DNA of 64,000 bases from Longimicrobiales bacterium. GTDB lineage: Bacteria; Gemmatimonadota; Gemmatimonadetes; Longimicrobiales; Gaopeijiaceae. Below the pieces are notes generated by a model. It ran no database searches. It had not been told where the DNA came from and was given only the letters and a program-made list of their open reading frames with translations. The stretch covers positions 4,672,001 to 4,736,000 of the forward strand of contig OZ250165.1 of NCBI GenBank assembly GCA_965238005.1, given 5' to 3'. Below, piece after piece: positions 46,190 through 57,979 of this stretch (positions within the stretch are counted from its first letter, which is position 1; every line of letters starts with the position of its first letter). The translations under genes and the position numbers were made by a program.

Positions 46190-47488
46190 ATGGGCTCTGG
46201 CCGTTTCCTCGCGGCCATAGGCGCCGTCGAGCTCGTCCTCCTGGCCACCGCTGCATGGTGGCCTGGGCGAGGCTTCCCCTCGCCCGGCCTCGGCCTCGTG
46301 GGGGGCGCCTTCTTGGCGTACGGGCTTGCCGCATACGCGACCGGACGGGGGGGGCCACAACGCTCCGTCCGGACAGAGCTCATGATCATCTGGGTGTGGG
46401 CCCTCGTCTTCCGCCTGGTCCTGCTTCCGGTGCCCCCCGAGCTCACGGACGACTTCTACCGATATCTCTGGGACGGGCACGTCCAGCTTCAGGGCGTCAA
46501 CCCGTACCTTTACGCGCCGGCCGATCCGGCCTTGGAGGCGCTGCGGACACCGTGGCACGGACTCATCAACAGTCCGTCGGTGTTCACCATCTACCCGCCC
46601 CTGGCCCAGATCGTCTTCCTGCTGAACGCCCTGCTGGGAGGGACGATCCTCGGCCTGAAGGTGGTGTGGGTGGGCCTGGATCTTGTGACCGCGTTCCTCC
46701 TGGGAAGGGTGGCGAGCCGGTCGGGGCGTGACCCCCGGGGGGTGCTGACCCTCTACCTGTGGTCCCCATTGCTCATCATCGAGACCGCCTGGAACGGGCA
46801 CCTGGAGGCCTTGGGGCTCGTGTTCATCGCCCTTCTCCTCTATTCCGGCGCCCACCCGGCGCGCGTGGGAGTGGCCCTGGCCCTGGCCACGCTGGCCAAG
46901 TTCGCTCCCGCCGCCGCTCTGCCTCCGCTCTGGAGACGGTACGGATGGCGGATGGTGCTGGCGCTCGGCGTCACCCTCGCGGTGCTCTATCTGCCTTACG
47001 TGTCGGCGGGCAAGATGCTGTGGGGAGGCCTGTCTACGTTCGCCGAGCACTGGCGATTCCAGGAGGGTGCCTTCGCGGTCTTGGAGTGGATCATTCCCGG
47101 CCCCGTGGCGCCCCGTGTGGCGGCGGGGCTGATCGTCCTGGCGGTCATCGGTTGGACGACCTGGAGGTCGTACAATGCCGAGAAAGCCCTTTTTTGGATC
47201 CTGGGAGCTGGCCTGCTCCTTTCCCCCACCGTCCACCCCTGGTACGTGCTCTGGGCCCTTCCGTTCGCGGCCCTGCGCGGGAACCGGGGCTGGATCCTCC
47301 TAAGCGGGCTCGTATTCCTAGGCTACTGGGGCCTCGAGACGTATCACTCCCAGGGAGTCTGGCCTCAGCCCGTGTGGGCCCGCTTGCTGCTCTGGGCCCC
47401 GGTCTTCGGATTGCTTGCCTACGATGCCACGGGGCTCTCCGGGCGAGGCGTGGCGGCGGCCGAGGTGGAGGCGGCCGAGGTCGTCTAG
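46190..47488 (+). CDS. GT-C membrane glycosyltransferase (family 87-like)
   Basis: LTDDFYRYLWDG, GVNPY, TIYPPLAQ, YLWSPL, LSPTVHPWY; start uncertain. Confidence 0.85.
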   Translation: MGSGRFLAAIGAVELVLLATAAWWPGRGFPSPGLGLVGGAFLAYGLAAYATGRGGPQRSVRTELMIIWVWALVFRLVLLPVPPELTDDFYRYLWDGHVQLQGVNPYLYAPADPALEALRTPWHGLINSPSVFTIYPPLAQIVFLLNALLGGTILGLKVVWVGLDLVTAFLLGRVASRSGRDPRGVLTLYLWSPLLIIETAWNGHLEALGLVFIALLLYSGAHPARVGVALALATLAKFAPAAALPPLWRRYGWRMVLALGVTLAVLYLPYVSAGKMLWGGLSTFAEHWRFQEGAFAVLEWIIPGPVAPRVAAGLIVLAVIGWTTWRSYNAEKALFWILGAGLLLSPTVHPWYVLWALPFAALRGNRGWILLSGLVFLGYWGLETYHSQGVWPQPVWARLLLWAPVFGLLAYDATGLSGRGVAAAEVEAAEVV

Positions 47489-48898
47489 CCCCCTCAGTCC
47501 CAGGCCCAAGTATCCGGAGCCGAAGAGCACGATGAACGGTACCGACCCGTAGAACCCGGCCGCGAGGGCCCCGGCGAGGTAGCCGACCATGACCACACCC
47601 AGGGACAGCTTGAGAATCAGATCACGGGCGGGGATCGGAGCCCGGTACGAAACCCGGGTCGCCTCGCCCTTCTTGGGAGTGCGCACGAACGGATCATCGC
47701 CTCCATGGAAGAGCCCCCGGATCACGGACCCGGTCACCGCCACCGTCAGCCCGATGCCCAGAGCCAAGGCCTGCGGCACTGCCCGCAAGCTCCAGCTCCG
47801 GCTCCGGCCCCGCTTGGAGGCCGCTTGGGAGTAGAACACGAGGAACGGCACCGTAGCCGCCGTGAACACCAGGAGGTCGGGCAGCAGATAGTGCTCGACC
47901 CCCAGCGCACGTCGGGCGATTTGGGAGGGGACGAGCAGTAGCCCCAGAAGCAGCGTCAGGGGGTGGGCTAAATGTCCGCAAAGGTGCACGGTCCCCTCCA
48001 ACTTCACCCCCAGCGGCCATGGTCCCCGAAGCAGCTCAGGGAGGACCCTCTTCGCGGTGGTCCCTCCCTGAGCCCAACGCCTCTGCTGTACCTCCAGGGC
48101 GCCGACGGTAGACGGGATCTCGGCCGGAACGCCGACGTCCTCCAGGAAGACGAAGCGCCACCCCTTCATCTGGGCCCTGTAGCTGAGGTCCAGATCCTCG
48201 GTCAGCGTGTCGGCCCGCCAGCCCCCGGCCTCGTGGATGCAGGTGCGCCGCCACATGCCGGCCGTGCCGTTGAAGTTGAAGAAGTGCCCGCTCTTGTACC
48301 GACCACCTTGCTCGAAGAAGAAGTGTCCGTCGAGGAAGAGACTCTGGCCCTTGGTCAACCAGCTCTCGTCCGAGTTCAGATGGTCCCAGCGGGCCTGCAC
48401 CATGCCGACCCCCGGATCACGGAAGGGGGGCAGGATCCTCCGGATCAGATCGGGCGGTGCGACGAAGTCCGCGTCGAGGACGAGAAGGAAGTCTCCTCGC
48501 GATCGCTCGGTCCCGTAGGCCAGGGCGCCGGCCTTGAAGCCGGCCCGCGTCCCTCGGCGCATATGCTCCACCGACACGCCCCTGGCTCGCCACCCCTCGG
48601 CCAGAGCCTCCGCGGTGCCGTCGGTGGAGTCGTCCAGGATCTGCACGTCGAAGCGGTCACGGGGATAATCCTGCCCACACGCTGCATCCACGAGCCGTTC
48701 GATGACATGGACCTCGTTGTAGATGGGCAGCTGGATCGTAACCCGAGGAAGCTTGGACTCGGGCCAGGGGTCCAGAACGGCCGACTTCGGCCGTCTGGAG
48801 AGCACCAGCAAATACGCCCGGTGCAGCGCGAAAGGAAGGAGCAGGGCGAGCACACCTGCCGTGAGAATCAAGGTGATGTAGGCCAGTACTTCCGGCAT
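47318..48898 (-). CDS. Cellulose-synthase-like GT2 glycosyltransferase
   Basis: TIQLPIYNE, LDDSTD, GFKAGAL, DADF, TLTEDLDLSYR, QQRRW, FVRTPK. Confidence 0.9.
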   Translation of the reverse strand: MPEVLAYITLILTAGVLALLLPFALHRAYLLVLSRRPKSAVLDPWPESKLPRVTIQLPIYNEVHVIERLVDAACGQDYPRDRFDVQILDDSTDGTAEALAEGWRARGVSVEHMRRGTRAGFKAGALAYGTERSRGDFLLVLDADFVAPPDLIRRILPPFRDPGVGMVQARWDHLNSDESWLTKGQSLFLDGHFFFEQGGRYKSGHFFNFNGTAGMWRRTCIHEAGGWRADTLTEDLDLSYRAQMKGWRFVFLEDVGVPAEIPSTVGALEVQQRRWAQGGTTAKRVLPELLRGPWPLGVKLEGTVHLCGHLAHPLTLLLGLLLVPSQIARRALGVEHYLLPDLLVFTAATVPFLVFYSQAASKRGRSRSWSLRAVPQALALGIGLTVAVTGSVIRGLFHGGDDPFVRTPKKGEATRVSYRAPIPARDLILKLSLGVVMVGYLAGALAAGFYGSVPFIVLFGSGYLGLGLRGLDDLGRLHLGRRHASPGEPRGIVGKQSEDRGPEQQAGPHGLRPDSLGVIRLEAPVA

Positions 48899-48984
48899 GC
48901 AGCTCGCTCGGGTGATGAAGGAGATGAGAAGCGGGGACCTCGTTGTCCAGTGTACTTCAAACCCGGCCGCCGGTCATGGGGTTC

Positions 48985-49449
48985 CTACGGACCCTCCTCG
49001 ATCTCAGCGGTCCAGGTGATCTCCACCGCACCCTTCAGGCTCTGGGCAGTGGGGCACTTGTCCACGTGCCGCTCCAGCGCCTCGTCCACGATCTCCCGGG
49101 TCCCTTCGGGAATCTGGATGGTGTAGTGGACATGGATCTTGGTGAGGACCGGGATCTTGTCCCGCATCTCGTTGAAGCCCTCGGCACTCAAGCGGATGTG
49201 ATCGCTCGGCAACTTGACCCCGCGCACTTCCAGTGCGCCGATGAGAGTCCCGAGTAGTCAGCCGGCCGCCGACGCCACCAGATAGTCGACGGGCAATGGC
49301 AGGTTGGGCTCCGAGTCCAACCCGTAGTGGGCCTTCACCGGGCCGTGCACGCCGAAGTCGATCTGGGTGCCATCCTCCAGGAGAGCCCGTCGATGGACTC
49401 CCGACAGCCTCCCAACCTCGGCCCGGGCGACGTAGAACGGATCGTTCAT
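48985..49449 (-). CDS. OsmC/Ohr family protein, probable selenoprotein (Sec64 from in-frame TGA 49258-49260)
   Basis: One continuous frame MNDPFY...PVDYLVASAAG-TGA-LLGTLIGALEVRG...HVDKCPTAQSLKG; TGA occupies the first catalytic Cys position. Confidence 0.85.
49216..49249 (-). promoter_or_regulatory. Candidate bacterial SECIS element
   Basis: mRNA after UGA: GACUCUC-AUCG-GCGCACU-GGA-AGUGCGC-GGGGUC; perfect 7-bp upper stem, G-led loop starting 27 nt after UGA. Confidence 0.7.
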
Positions 49450-49640
49450 TCCTCCACCTCCCCCTCGTGTTCGGTAGCCGCCACCTCGAAGCCCGGGCAA
49501 GCGAGCACGGGGAGCGGTGGATACTTCGGATATCGCGAGTCCTCGAAGGATCGCTCGCAAAGATAAAAGATAGACGCTCGCTCGTTCTCGACCAGTCGGA
49601 CGAAGGCGCACCTCTCACAGAGCCCCACCGCCCTACTCAT
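49446..49640 (-). CDS. Small 4-Cys protein (64 aa), putative metal-binding
   Basis: MSRAVGLCERC...FYLCERS...YPKYPPLPVLACPGF; ATGA overlaps with both neighbours. Confidence 0.75.
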   Translation of the reverse strand: MSRAVGLCERCAFVRLVENERASIFYLCERSFEDSRYPKYPPLPVLACPGFEVAATEHEGEVEE

Positions 49641-50373
49641 GGCCGAATTCCCAGCAGCGCCGCCTGGCGCTCGGATCGCCCTCCCCGGTGTGAGAACAAA
49701 CCGGCGGTTCCACACAGAGTGCAGTGCTCCGAAACCGTGATGCGGCTCTCTTGGATACCCAGTGCGCGGGCCCGAGAGACCAGAAGGGCTCGTACGTCCA
49801 CCGGCGTGGGACCGGACGGTGTTGGCAGCCCCAGGGCGTCGCAGACCTCCGGGCCAACCTCGTAGCAGGCCCCGCAGATGGCCGGGCCGAGATGCGCGTG
49901 TAGGTGGGCAGCGTCCGAGGCGAACTGTGTGTGGAGCGTCTGGATCCCCTCCGCCATGATGCCGCCCGCTATCCCCCTCCATCCAGCGTGTAGAAGAGCC
50001 ACGACCCGCCGCTCCGGGTCCACGAGGTAGACCGGCACGCAGCCGGCCACCGTCACCGCGAGCAGCACCCCGGGCGTGGATGTGGCATGCCCGTCCGCCG
50101 GACCGCTGTCGACATGTACCCCCGTGGGAGTGCGTCGTACACGGCCACCCTGGTCTCGTGGACCTGACGAGCGTGGGCGACCGTGCCGAAGCCTGTGGCC
50201 ATCAGAACGGCTCGCCAACGATCGTCCGCCCGGGGGGGTGGAGACTCCCCAAAGAGCCGGAGGTCGAAGGGATCGTTCTTGGAGCCCGCGTGGGTGATGC
50301 CGGCCATCACCCATGGAAAGCGGTCCGCCCACGCACCCACGGGATGAAACGGGATACCGGCGTCGGCAAGCAT
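49637..50373 (-). pseudogene. pgeF: PgeF/YfiH (laccase-domain, purine nucleoside phosphorylase-like) protein with a 1-nt frameshift near 50125 (real or sequencing error)
   Basis: ARQVHE in one frame; ADGH, VAGCVPV, LHAGWRG, LGPAICGACYEVG, FSHR in the next; start uncertain. Confidence 0.75.
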
Positions 50374-50386
50374 GTCGAAAACTCTA

Positions 50387-50749
50387 GAAGGCTGTTGAGG
50401 AAGTACAGTGCGTCGCGCACAGGATGCTTGCGCGCGTTCAGACAAGGAACGACGACGAGTCGTAGCCGAGCTACGGCGAGGAGGAGAGACGCAGGATCAA
50501 CCGCGCAACCACCCTGTGCCCAACGGAATAGTTGCTATGAACTTACGTGTTCGTGGGTTGCGGTGGCACGGCCCCGACCACGCTTCGCGTGGTGCCCCCG
50601 TTGTTGGAGCTCCTAACCGTAGCGACGGCTATGGCCTCGTCGCTCCGACCCACGCTGTCGCGCGGGTACCCCGGATCTGGGGCCGTGGCATCCCGGGTAC
50701 CCGTGCGGTAGCACGGGTGGCGACCCGCTGTACTTCCTCATCAGCCTTC
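50387..50749. mobile_element. MITE-like non-coding element with 30-bp terminal inverted repeats
   Basis: gaaggctgttgaggaagtacagtgcgtcgc (50387-50416) vs reverse complement of 50720-50749, 27/30 identical; CTAG at the left edge. Confidence 0.7.
50575..50598. repeat. REP-like palindrome with GCGAAGC core, copy 2
   Basis: cgaccacgcttcgcgtggtgcccc; 18-bp core flanked by GCCCC on both sides. Confidence 0.75.
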
Positions 50750-50859
50750 AGACCCCCGAGGCGATTTTCAAGGAAAAAGCTCGGAGCCCCCGGCGCGGCT
50801 CCACGTCGCCGCCGGTGTGCCGCGCGGGGGCCCACTCTTGCCGATCCGTGGTCGTCGGT

Positions 50860-53325
50860 CTACCGCACGCCGGTCACGCGGAGACCCGCCACCAGAGTGC
50901 GGGGCAGTCCGGGACGGAGCCCAGCCGGGCGCCTCGCCACGCTGTAACGCTCGTCCGAGACATTCTGGACGCCGGCGAACACGGTCCCCCTGCGGTCGAG
51001 CTGCAGCTCCCCGGCCAGGTTGAATACCACGTACGAGTCCGTGCCCTCCCCCCCTGGGATGGGACCTCGACCGGCCCGCGTTCGCATAGCGCCCGACGCC
51101 ATCGTGGAGAGCGTGACGCTCCACCGCGGATGATCGTACCCGATGCTGCCGCTCATCTGGTGCGCGGGGAGGTATGGGAGGCGGTCGCCGATCTCAACCT
51201 CGCCCCAGGGACCGTAGTCGGAGTCGAAGGAAGACCGGAATTCGGCACGCGTATGCGTATAGGTGATCCGTAGGGGCACACGACCCGCCCAGCCGCGTCC
51301 CCAGGCGAAATCGTAGTCCACGGAGACCTCGACACCCGCTACCGCGGCGTCCCCTCCGTTGTACGCCTCGCCCGTGCCATCCTCGGTGGTGGCCAGCGTC
51401 GCCCGTCCGAGGATGTTCGCGTAGTCGCTGTAGAACGCGCTCGCCTGGGCGGCCAACCCCGAGTTCCGCCACCTCCCGCCGAACTCGTAGTTGACGCTGC
51501 TCTCCGGGCGCGTGGCCTCGGCGGCACCGGGTCCCTGAGGTCCGAACCCCTTGTGAACACCCCAGAAGAGGTTGAGGTCACGGGCGGCACGATACGAGAA
51601 CCCGATGCCGGGGATCCACACATTCACCCGGTTCTCCCGAACCCGGGCGGGGTCGTCGCTGGCGTAGTCCGTTCGGGCGAAGTCGATGTGCTCGAAACGG
51701 ACCCCGGGAGTCACGACCAGGCGTCCGAGCTCGACTTCGTCCTGCACGAAGAAGGCGAGCGCGTCGGCCGAGCTCACCCGATTGGACTGGCTCCCGGGCT
51801 CACCAACGGTCGTGAGGACCATGGTACCGTCCTGCATCTGGAACGCGTCCTCCCACTGGAAGCGGTCCTCCTGGTCACGGTGGAACCGAAGGCCCAGCTC
51901 GAGCTCATGACGGCCGAGGCCGAGGCCCACCGTCGACTGCACACCCTCGGCGAAGTAATCACGATTGTTTGCCCGAACCCTGAGTGCGTCGGGGTCGCTA
52001 CCCTCCCCGCGCAGGATCTCGAGGGCCGGCGCATTCTCGTCAGGAGCATCCAAGACCTTGCTGATGCCCGTGCCCAGCACGCTCTGCAGCTTGTACCAAT
52101 TCCGGGAGAAGTCAGTGCGATACGCCGTCGTCGTTACGTCGCCGGCACCGCGGGTCCAGAAGTGGCGGAGCTGAATCTGCGAGTGCTCGGCCTTCATCAG
52201 GTCCGACTCGGAGGCCGGGTATCGGTACAGCGGATTCGTGGCGAAGTCCGCGTCCGTGAGGCCGAGATAGGTCTCTGCCGACTCCTCGTCGGTGTAGCCG
52301 AGCTTGATCTCCAGCTCCTGATACGAGGGGCCTTCACGATCGCTGTTGACCCGAACCTTCCCCATGAAGTCGGCCACGTCGAAGCCCGTCCCCGCGCCGG
52401 TGTCCAGCTCCTTGAAGCCGTCGGTCTCCAGCGTGTACCCCTCCAGGAGCCACCCGAAGCGGGTGCCGGAGTCACCGATCCGGCCGTGACCCCTCAGGGT
52501 GGCGTTCTCACCCGCGGCTCCCTCCATGAACCACGAGAGCCGATCGGGGATGGACGACGAGACGAGGTTGATCGCGCCACCGATGGTGCGGGGACCATAC
52601 TTGACCTGGCTCGATCCCTTCCGGACCTCCACGGCCTCCATGCGCCCGGCCACCGGAAAGTAATAGGCAGACGGAGCCGTGTAGGGAGCGGGGGCGATGA
52701 GTACGCCGTCCTCCATGAGGGTGATCTTGGAGCTCCGGTCCACACCCGTCCCCCTGAGCCCGATGTTGGGACGAAGCCCGAACCCGTCCTCGTCCTGGAC
52801 GTTCACCCCCGGAACGAGGCGCAGGAAGTTGTGGATGTTGTCGAACACGAAGGCGGGAGACTCCAGGTCCGCCGCGACCAGCACGTGCGCAGCCCCGGGA
52901 ATCTCGTCGATGCCAAGGGGGTCACCGATCATCCGGGTGCGCGCAGTGAGGACCCTGATCGGGTCCAGGCGGATCGGTCCGGCACCCATCTCGGCGGTCA
53001 CCCGGAGCTCCCTGTCGTCGACCACCGTCACCGTCTTGGTGAGGGTCGAGTAGCCGAGGCGCACGAACCGTAGCGAGACGGTGCCTAGGGGGATCCCCCT
53101 CAGCGCGTAGCGTCCGGCGTCATCGGACAGGGTGCGAAGGGATGTGCCCACCACCTCGACCGAGGTTCCAGCAAGGGCCGAGCCGTCCTCGGTGGCCTGG
53201 ACGAACCCTGCAATCCTGCCGGGGCCGTCCTGTGCATTGACAGAAGGTGACAACAGCGAGGCTACGACGATCAGCTGGAGGATCCTGCGAACGGAGACAC
53301 TCATGGCCCTGGCCTCACTCGGCAT
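50860..53325 (-). CDS. TonB-dependent receptor, FecA-like
   Basis: Signal peptide, carboxypeptidase-like N domain, plug GLRPNIGLRG...EVRKGS...GGAIN, C-term GLRPGLPRT. Confidence 0.92.
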   Translation of the reverse strand: MPSEARAMSVSVRRILQLIVVASLLSPSVNAQDGPGRIAGFVQATEDGSALAGTSVEVVGTSLRTLSDDAGRYALRGIPLGTVSLRFVRLGYSTLTKTVTVVDDRELRVTAEMGAGPIRLDPIRVLTARTRMIGDPLGIDEIPGAAHVLVAADLESPAFVFDNIHNFLRLVPGVNVQDEDGFGLRPNIGLRGTGVDRSSKITLMEDGVLIAPAPYTAPSAYYFPVAGRMEAVEVRKGSSQVKYGPRTIGGAINLVSSSIPDRLSWFMEGAAGENATLRGHGRIGDSGTRFGWLLEGYTLETDGFKELDTGAGTGFDVADFMGKVRVNSDREGPSYQELEIKLGYTDEESAETYLGLTDADFATNPLYRYPASESDLMKAEHSQIQLRHFWTRGAGDVTTTAYRTDFSRNWYKLQSVLGTGISKVLDAPDENAPALEILRGEGSDPDALRVRANNRDYFAEGVQSTVGLGLGRHELELGLRFHRDQEDRFQWEDAFQMQDGTMVLTTVGEPGSQSNRVSSADALAFFVQDEVELGRLVVTPGVRFEHIDFARTDYASDDPARVRENRVNVWIPGIGFSYRAARDLNLFWGVHKGFGPQGPGAAEATRPESSVNYEFGGRWRNSGLAAQASAFYSDYANILGRATLATTEDGTGEAYNGGDAAVAGVEVSVDYDFAWGRGWAGRVPLRITYTHTRAEFRSSFDSDYGPWGEVEIGDRLPYLPAHQMSGSIGYDHPRWSVTLSTMASGAMRTRAGRGPIPGGEGTDSYVVFNLAGELQLDRRGTVFAGVQNVSDERYSVARRPAGLRPGLPRTLVAGLRVTGVR

Positions 53326-56378: not shown

Positions 56379-57979
56379 GAGTCTGCGCCGCAGAACCCTG
56401 CGGCGGCTATCTTTGGTGGTAGCGAAGGCATTGGGAAGGCTTGCGGATCACCGAGGGGGGTGAATGGGAACGACATTTCGACCGTACGATCCGGAGCAGA
56501 TGTTGTTGCTGCCTCCGGATCTTCGGGAGTGGGTGTCGGAGGGTCATTTGGCGCACCATGTGAGCGACCTGGTGGACGCGGTGGAGCTGAGCGCGTTCTA
56601 CGGGCGGTACCGGGGGGACGGGCGGCGCAACTCGCCGTACGACCCTCGGATGATGGTCAAGGTGCTGATCTACGCGTATGCGACGGGCACCTTCTCGTCG
56701 CGGAAGATGGCGAGGAAGCTGGAGGAGGATGTCGCGTTTCGGATGCTGGCGGCGGAGAACTTCCCGAAGCACCGGACGCTGTGCGAGTTCCGCAAGCGCC
56801 ATCTCGGGGATTTCCGGGCGGTGTTTGTGGAGGTGGTGATGCTCGCGCGGGCCTTGGGGCTGGCGGGGCTTGGCAGGGTGTCGGTGGACGGGACGAAGGT
56901 TCGGGCGAACGCGAACAAGCGCAAGGCGATGAGCTACGGCCGGATGGTGACCGGGGAGCCTCGGCTGGAGGCGGAGATCCGGGGGCTGTTGGAGAGGGCC
57001 GAGGCGGTGGACGAAGCGGAAGACGAGCGCTACGGCGAGGAAGCATGCGGAGACGAGGTGCCGGAGGAGCTCAAGCGGCGCGAGGACCGGCTGGCGGCGA
57101 TCCGGGAGGCGAAGGCGCGCCTGGAAGCCGAGCAGAGAGCGGCGGACGACGCACGGGGCCGCAAGCCGGGGCAGACGCGCAACCCGAAGGGCGGCAGGCC
57201 CTACAAGCGGGAGTACGGAGAGCCGGACGAGGCGGCGCAGAGCAACTTCACGGACCCTGAGAGCCGGATCATGAAGACGAGTTCGGAGGGGTTCCAGCAG
57301 TGCTACAACGCACAGACGGTCGTGGAGGGGGAGAACCAGCTGGTGGTCGGGGCCGAGGTGACGGACAACGCGAGCGACCAGGGCCAGCTGGTGCCCATGG
57401 TCGACGCGGTGGCGCAAGCGTACGGCGAGACGCCGGCGCAGGTGCTGGCGGACACGGGCTATTGCAACGAGCGGGATCTCGAGGAACTGGAAGAGCGAGA
57501 CATCGACGGGTATGTGGCGCTGGCCCGGGAGGGCAAGGCCGCCCCCACGGTTGACAAGGAGGAATATCCGGCGAAAGTCCGCATGGCGGAGAAGCTGGCG
57601 AGCGAAGATGGCCGCAGACGCTACGCACGGCGAAAGTCGCAGGCCGAGGCGCCCATCGGCTGGATCAAGGAAGTGATGGGCTTTCGACGATTCAGCTTCC
57701 GGGGCCTCGAGAAGGTCCGGGCCGAGTGGACCCTCGTGTGCCTGGCACTCAATGTGAAGCGGCTGCACACCCTTCAGGCGGCATGACTGCACGAGGGTTC
57801 ACCCGCATCTGCCGGCGCGAGGGCTCTCGTAGCTCTCTTGCCCCCCCAACGCATCCATTCCGCTCTCCCGATCCGTCGCAGACACAAGTCCTCAACCTCC
57901 CAATCACCCGGATCCGCCTCGCCGCGGACGGCTCGATGACCATTCGGCTCAGTCAGCTGTGCTTCTGCGGCGCAGACTC
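56379..57979 (+). mobile_element. Complete IS1182-family insertion sequence (1601 bp)
   Basis: Perfect 17-bp TIRs gagtctgcgccgcagaa (56379-56395, 57963-57979) flanked by CTAG (56375-56378, 57980-57983). Confidence 0.92.
56464..57786 (+). CDS. IS1182 family transposase
   Basis: PYDPRMMVKVLIYAY, SSRK, VDGTKVRANA, NFTDPESRIM, QQCYNAQ, LADTGY, FRRFSFRG. Confidence 0.93.
   Translation: MGTTFRPYDPEQMLLLPPDLREWVSEGHLAHHVSDLVDAVELSAFYGRYRGDGRRNSPYDPRMMVKVLIYAYATGTFSSRKMARKLEEDVAFRMLAAENFPKHRTLCEFRKRHLGDFRAVFVEVVMLARALGLAGLGRVSVDGTKVRANANKRKAMSYGRMVTGEPRLEAEIRGLLERAEAVDEAEDERYGEEACGDEVPEELKRREDRLAAIREAKARLEAEQRAADDARGRKPGQTRNPKGGRPYKREYGEPDEAAQSNFTDPESRIMKTSSEGFQQCYNAQTVVEGENQLVVGAEVTDNASDQGQLVPMVDAVAQAYGETPAQVLADTGYCNERDLEELEERDIDGYVALAREGKAAPTVDKEEYPAKVRMAEKLASEDGRRRYARRKSQAEAPIGWIKEVMGFRRFSFRGLEKVRAEWTLVCLALNVKRLHTLQAA

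Follow-up and report, generated by a model that had tools for sequence, protein, structure and literature searches.

In 2005, Sargasso Sea data led to the prediction of an OsmC-like selenoprotein carrying the motif UxxT (PMC1088965), which was reported again in the GOS data (PMC2398784) and not detected in the Olavius symbionts (PMC1976440). It is relisted as PF02566/COG1765, with the UxxT motif, in catalogue entries of 2022 and 2026 (PMC9312934, PMC13188914). Ohr and OsmC peroxidases are described as needing an Arg and a Glu besides their two Cys residues, and a third, Ohr-like/YhfA group, described as poorly characterised, has the two Cys without the Arg and the Glu (PMC5384416, PMC8945050, PMC3469484). 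The weight of the Glu is illustrated by Xylella Ohr, where it forms the pair Glu51/Cys61 and where the E51A variant is reported to retain residual activity only, with the Cys pKa raised from 5.9 to 7.2 (PMC5962072). PMC5384416 cites a study that reported activity of one Ohr-like enzyme lacking the Arg and Glu, but found the enzyme inactive in its own experiments.

Here we describe an OsmC-fold gene on the minus strand of the window, the whole 64,000-nt stretch of a Longimicrobiales genome that was analysed. The gene is of the Ohr-like/YhfA type and has one in-frame TGA, at the position of the first catalytic Cys (Table 1). Comparison with homologs indicates that this codon is almost certainly recoded as selenocysteine (Sec) in an intact gene, and that the gene belongs to a subfamily of its own, here named after its GVHG motif.

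The reading frame and its predicted fold

A previous sequence-only reading had joined two ORF pieces (49258-49611 and 48985-49227) into one frame of 154 codons starting at the ATG at 49449, with a lone TGA at codon 64, and had noted that the second Cys (KCPT) was intact. Retranslation agrees on each of these points, with a TAG stop at 48987-48985 (-) and the sole in-frame TGA in the context YLVASAAG-U-LLGT. When read through, the protein matches Pfam PF02566 (OsmC) with 57.7 bits over residues 51-146, compared with a cut-off of 27.5; the 3' piece alone reaches 36.4 bits and the 5' piece gives no score.

Table 1. Window coordinates of the gene, its predicted functional sites and the adjoining reading frame
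Feature	Position	Strand	Basis or remark
Cys-rich ORF of 64 aa, its stop overlapping the OsmC ATG (ATGA)	49446..49640	-	sequence; homologs in 78/171 main-clade loci
Shine-Dalgarno-like GGAGGT, 6 nt ahead of the ATG	49456..49461	-	sequence; putative function
Intact OsmC-fold gene (Ohr-like/YhfA-type, GVHG subfamily)	48985..49449	-	154 codons, one TGA read through
GVHG motif, residues 33-36, subfamily signature, after strand 3	49342..49353	-	locus alignment and model secondary structure
Val54-Asp55	49285..49290	-	Val at the Ohr/OsmC catalytic-Glu position; Asp55 invariant
TGA codon 64, predicted Sec, site of the peroxidatic-position Cys	49258..49260	-	homolog comparison
Bacterial SECIS upper stem-loop, 7 bp, GGA loop at 49231-49229	49222..49238	-	folding and covariation
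Cys132, second (resolving-position) Cys, H-x-x-K-C-P-T	49054..49056	-	translation and alignment

An AlphaFold2 model of the read-through protein, built from a 28-row alignment with Cys substituted at position 64, has a mean pLDDT of 96. Its best structural matches are all OsmC/Ohr-fold proteins, led by 2onf (Z 15.9, rmsd 2.0, 139 aligned residues), and an ESM Atlas search with a natural Cys ortholog returned generic OsmC-like clusters and nothing more specific. The TGA site lies mid-way along the first long helix of the model (residues 53-75). Codon 64 aligns with the Cys of AHAGC in the T. thermophilus OsmC 1ukk, and the two redox residues, U64 and C132, about 60 positions apart, align with both Cys of that protein.

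TGA and Cys at position 64 of relatives

Across 173 distinct related loci (genome and metagenome loci minus duplicates and one distant canonical OsmC), the codon-64 site is TGA in 170 and TGC (Cys) in 3, a ratio that is no unbiased census of the two forms because the loci were retrieved with queries from the window gene. A match was obtained in 107 of 109 genome loci, which include the window genome's own two genes and some duplicates, with TGA in 106 and TGC in the distant canonical OsmC; 79 of 80 metagenome loci cover the site (76 TGA, 3 TGC). The loci are labelled Longimicrobiales or Gemmatimonadota nearly throughout, with the closest at 95% identity, and the Cys132 position is Cys in all 171 main-clade TGA loci. 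Both halves of the gene are under purifying selection, with dN/dS between 0.09 and 0.27 in six pairwise comparisons with relatives.

In protein databases, 27 of the 120 matches listed (from 333) are near full-length and 93 are pieces of 84-99 residues that cover 51-58% of the query. Position 64 is Cys in 26 of these 27 near-full-length relatives, and the remaining one has a deletion there. A set of 150 cluster representatives contains 19 that end at profile position 62-63, 32 that begin at 65-66 and 80 that span the site; database proteins thus break at the Sec site in 51 of the 150. Among 48 further relatives, mostly full-length, position 64 is Cys in 37 and Trp in one. The homolog comparison at this position that the sequence-only reading had proposed therefore gives a predominance of TGA or Cys. 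A contig check over 4 of 24 runs found no other letter at 49258-49260 among 40 of 111 rows; none of the pieces listed there spans the codon by 31 letters in both directions, and one of the runs may be the source sample.

The hairpin downstream of the TGA

The sequence-only reading had also described a GCGCACU-GGA-AGUGCGC hairpin, with its loop 27 nt after the UGA, on a GU-rich lower stem. The hairpin itself is confirmed: its loop opens with a G that is base 27 counted from the UGA (26-nt spacing), the energy is -12.6 kcal/mol, and the four bSECIS constraints as quoted in PMC13188914 hold for it. The lower stem did not survive closer analysis, as its pairing changes with the folded window and, across 74 sequences, is no better than in shuffles (62.6% vs 62.7%); averaged pairing probabilities show the 7-bp stem alone.

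Taken alone, the hairpin is weak evidence, because its folding z-scores are modest (-1.9 to -2.4 in windows of 48-81 nt, +0.3 at 111 nt) and because 1941 of the 80668 in-frame TGA sites of the source genome satisfy a loose SECIS-like rule. Hairpin energy was accordingly rejected as stand-alone evidence: values of -7.5 kcal/mol or lower occur in 170 of 170 TGA loci, and 2 of the 3 Cys loci still fold likewise. A genome-wide SECIS screen was also rejected as a selenoprotein list, being too unspecific. Most of the 48 hits under a strict rule seem to be due to chance; among the 48 is an in-frame TGA at C1:3644359 (-) of the source genome, which follows a 218-codon open stretch in the context KLWAA-U-IGGALL and has a GGA hairpin 17 nt downstream.

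The hairpin nevertheless goes beyond chance, because it covaries across homologs. Six of the stem pairs are formed in every one of the 170 TGA loci, and 168 loci form the closing pair. One pair alternates between A-U (126) and G-C (40), another between C-G and U-A or G-U, and these swaps alter the encoded residues (ALEV, ALEA, VLEA, GLEA). In the 74 sequences used for covariation (the window gene and 73 others that remain of 155 after dereplication at 90%), 99.8% of cells are paired and three pairs have two-sided changes. These amount to 35 cells, compared with 11.6 in shuffles and with none of 500 shuffles as high; relatedness inflates such counts, and slid controls, which retain that relatedness, are far lower. 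Codon choice follows the same element, with Leu73 encoded by CTG in 158 of 159 main-clade sequences vs 945 of 2163 for other Leu codons, and Ala72 by GCA, a codon that is rare elsewhere, in 126 of 154. The three Cys genes all have CTC, so the first loop G is lost in them. An Rfam scan of window positions 47000-52000 gave no match, and a promoter and terminator scan gave no signal above shuffles.

Selenocysteine machinery in the source genome and the phylum

The source genome (95.85% complete) encodes selA (555.9 bits), selB with both SelB winged-helix domains, selD, and a tRNA-Sec (selC) with a TCA anticodon, which completes the set of four genes that the sequence-only reading had named for a search. 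The selD gene (C1:578521-579441) has its own in-frame TGA, in GAG-U-ASK, presumably the usual Sec site of selenophosphate synthetase. With this machinery, a complex of SelB and Sec-tRNA would in all likelihood bind the GGA-loop SECIS and insert Sec64.

A search of 301 Gemmatimonadota genomes produced 139 matches at E <= 3.4e-10, all with an in-frame TGA, beyond which lie 11 weaker listed matches without one and 27 weaker ones left out. The 139 come from 87 genomes, often as two paralogs per genome. Each of these 87 genomes has selA, the 56 genomes in which selA was not matched all lack the gene, and 158 selA genomes (one of them, G188, unpublished) lack it too; no p-value is claimed for this link, since kin genomes are not independent. 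With selA in 245 of the 301 genomes, Sec use appears to be the norm in Gemmatimonadota, and a literature search combining the phylum name with selenocysteine found nothing on phylum-wide Sec use in titles or the beginnings of abstracts.

Other readings of the TGA codon

The sequence-only reading had preferred a Sec/Cys peroxidase to a pseudogene. The selenoprotein part of that proposal stands, carried by the TGA and Cys homologs, the covarying SECIS, the machinery and purifying selection; the peroxidase part is not established, given Val54 at the position of the Glu. Of the outcomes that the sequence-only reading had named as refuting, neither a prevailing non-Cys residue at the site in homologs nor an absence of selABCD was seen, and the contig rows covered gave no TGC or TGT at the codon.

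The pgeF/YfiH-like gene upstream (49637-50445, -) has a frameshift near 50120 here, which may be a real lesion or an assembly error, and is intact in two relatives (L024 and L025). Such a lesion would suit a decayed or misread locus, in which the TGA would be a nonsense mutation or a miscalled TGC/TGT. It is irrelevant to codon 64, because the identical TGA is common to 170 distinct loci from many genomes, and both the purifying selection on the two gene halves and a covarying SECIS that tracks TGA versus Cys speak against decay or error. Conservation effectively refutes this explanation, whose probability we consider negligible. The TGA could also be read as Trp, Gly or Cys, or the gene could be made as two separate polypeptides, as might be suggested by the ATG directly after the TGA in many relatives and by the 93 database pieces among the 120 listed matches. 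In the window gene, however, the next codon is CTA, which is not a start codon, and a split would fall within the helix of residues 53-75 and delete the catalytic residue. Insertion of another residue fits poorly with Cys at the aligned position in 26 of 27 close relatives among the listed matches and in 37 of the wider 48, with a single Trp, and with the strict tie to selA, which leaves this explanation very improbable. Recoding of codon 64 as Sec is the reading adopted in the following sections.

Active-site residues and possible function

Ten residues ahead of Sec64 stands Val54, which aligns with the Glu of P-E-E-L in 1ukk. Val54 and Asp55 are each present in 171 of 171 main-clade loci, and none of the 48 further relatives has Glu at 54. 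Conserved in the family instead are Tyr6, Arg20, GVHG, Asp55, Arg76 and His128, together with Gly67 and Thr68 (171/171). The GVHG motif occurs in 169 of the 171 loci, the remaining two not covering it, and its His35 is found in 38 of the 48 further relatives. The catalytic Arg belongs to the strand 1-2 loop in Ohr and to the strand 3-helix 1 loop in OsmC, and no invariant Arg could be assigned to either place: none of the tabulated positions within 33-52 is an invariant Arg, Arg20 is near-invariant but sits at the start of strand 2 in the AlphaFold2 model, and alignments to solved structures fell short of this region. By the Glu half of the group's definition, the Val places the protein in the Ohr-like/YhfA third group.

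We lean slightly towards a dimeric selenol-thiol peroxidase as the product, a function that is supported by the conservation of both redox positions and the Ohr/OsmC fold and that is weakened by the absence of the catalytic Glu. By analogy with the family as described in PMC5384416, two chains would form a dimer with two active sites. In a cycle that, taken as a whole, seems to us somewhat probable, the Sec64 selenolate would attack an organic hydroperoxide and then condense with Cys132 to a selenenyl-sulfide; a dithiol, for which a lipoyl group is the likeliest candidate, would reduce this again. Selenols have a low pKa, near 5. Because the family lacks the Ohr/OsmC Glu, this low pKa would take the place of the Cys activation that Glu and Arg provide in Ohr. 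The Glu is likewise missing from the natural Cys orthologs, which shows that the family can do without Sec and weakens the unproven idea that Sec compensates.

The same missing Glu is compatible with a selenoprotein that is no hydroperoxide reductase, in which Sec64 and Cys132 would reduce or transfer another electrophile (a disulfide, a persulfide or a small-molecule sulfur or selenium compound) in a pocket that would owe its shape to the family-specific residues His35, Asp55, Arg20 and His128. We regard this as a serious possibility, at somewhat under an even chance. Its residues are near-invariant and family-specific, and the top structural matches of the model are uncharacterised Ohr-like proteins (2onf, Z 15.9; 1ml8, 14.2; 2egt, 14.1), with proven peroxidases at Z 13.6 or below, although, once the top hit is set aside, the Z values differ by about 1 and are mostly tied. 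The function of the YhfA group is still to be investigated according to PMC8945050, and the source genome has three other OsmC-family genes without a TGA. On the other hand, no conserved neighbour from sulfur or selenium metabolism was found around the related loci, and peroxide reduction is the only activity measured for the OsmC fold in the literature cited here. We retain the selenol-thiol peroxidase as the slightly favoured function.

Genomic surroundings

The 64-aa ORF directly upstream contains a C-x-x-C, two more Cys and the segment YPKYPPLPV, and has no Pfam or NCBIfam match; judged from the sequence overlap, it is probably translationally coupled to the OsmC gene. The recurrent neighbours of the 171 main-clade loci are this Cys-rich ORF (78), pgeF (73) and sucA (40). 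The neighbourhood was rejected as a functional clue, since the recurrent genes resemble lineage synteny and other loci have unrelated neighbours, and no clue to a redox partner was found among the genes around related loci. The sucA gene of the window is on the other strand, 4 kb off, which is why we draw no connection from it to lipoyl reductants; directly after it lies an IS1182-family transposase (window 56464-57786, +, 370 bits).

Paralogs and the origin of the predicted Sec codon

A second Sec-OsmC paralog of the GVHG subfamily is present in the source genome at C1:3998801-3999259 (L128:1492-1959, -), between an HDAC-domain gene and an OmpA-family gene on the other strand. It is 34% identical, has U65 and carries a GGA-loop hairpin at the equal 26-nt spacing, and many relatives have both paralogs.

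In a quick tree of 132 rows, the GVHG subfamily forms one branch (SH-aLRT 96) apart from the NF041052 rows. Of the 75 dereplicated main-clade rows it keeps 38, and it contains only 2 rows for NF041052 and 7 for other OsmC proteins, a part of the tree that drew long-branch warnings. It suggests that Sec arose independently of NF041052. Within the main clade, Cys forms occur in three places among the Sec genes, and Cys monophyly was rejected (p-AU 0.025) in a test on 57 rows that included 16 of the 29 Cys rows. This scatter is consistent with repeated reversions from Sec to Cys. A fuller scenario would have the GVHG Sec acquired independently of the UxxT proteins, ancestral over the two paralog lineages, reverted to Cys several times and replacing the Glu/Arg activation by its selenol; as a whole we consider it rather unlikely. 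If it were true, natural Sec/Cys ortholog pairs would offer a direct test of what the Ohr-like third group does.

An assembly labelled as Deltaproteobacteria (G326) contains two NF041052 genes with an in-frame TGA (L220 and L223), one with UxxT and one with UxxS, both of which score above the model's cut-off and served as controls. The same assembly also holds two gene copies of the Gemmatimonadota type (L095 and L097), which may reflect bin contamination or transfer.

Implications for annotation and enzymology

The analysis corrects a systematic annotation error in a widespread gene, present in 87 of 301 sampled Gemmatimonadota genomes, that databases store as two fragments and that the curated OsmC selenoprotein model (NF041052) misses. 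It adds a second OsmC-fold lineage with predicted Sec at the same site, and offers a textbook SECIS case in which base pairing constrains the encoded residues. Orthologs that naturally have Sec or Cys and share about 55-60% identity provide a clean probe of Glu-less Ohr-like proteins. Neither the recoding mechanism nor the kind of system is new. Sec at the OsmC site has been predicted since 2005.

Comparison with known systems

With NF041052 (OsmC_like_Se) the window gene shares the OsmC fold, Sec at the first catalytic-Cys position, a retained second Cys and the status of a sequence-based prediction. The TGA of both NF041052 control genes aligns with codon 64, and the representative listed in a supplement row of PMC12013277 has Sec at the same position. 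The two differ in that the window gene scores 27.7 bits, compared with a cut-off of 95, and has U-L-L-G-T (UxxxT) where the catalogued family has UxxT, a motif that is not absolute, as the UxxS control gene demonstrates. The window protein is 24% identical to one control gene over 99 residues and has only a 44-residue match (E 0.10) to the other; ordinary OsmC-family proteins with Cys are at least as similar to it. The GVHG motif is a further difference. The best E-value of the NF041052 profile with 49 subfamily members is 1.7e-08; at E 1e-22 the profile was not found in the 301 Gemmatimonadota genomes, while the control assembly gave 177 bits. A literature search, which covered sources other than publications on NCBIfam selenoprotein families, found no description of the GVHG subfamily.

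The Ohr/OsmC peroxidases (TIGR03561, TIGR03562; 1zb9, 1n2f, 1qwi, 1ukk) resemble the window protein in fold (Z 12-13.6, rmsd 2.6-3.0) and in the two redox positions in corresponding helices. The window protein differs from them in having Val for Glu and the predicted Sec for Cys, at 12-23% identity, and scores 19.3 bits with TIGR03562 (cut-off 85.8), with no match to TIGR03561 at E up to 1.

The Ohr-like/YhfA proteins (2onf Ta0195, 1ml8, 2egt, 2pn2, 2opl), which form a loose collection rather than one family, also lack the Glu, provide the best structural matches and, as in 2opl, share P-V-[DE]-Y-L ahead of the Cys helix. Identity to the solved members is only 12-21%, the PRK10738 score is 16.1 vs 138 bits, and the window protein, unlike them, carries the predicted Sec and the GVHG motif. 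By these sequence criteria, the window gene is placed outside the curated NF041052 model, in a separate GVHG subfamily.
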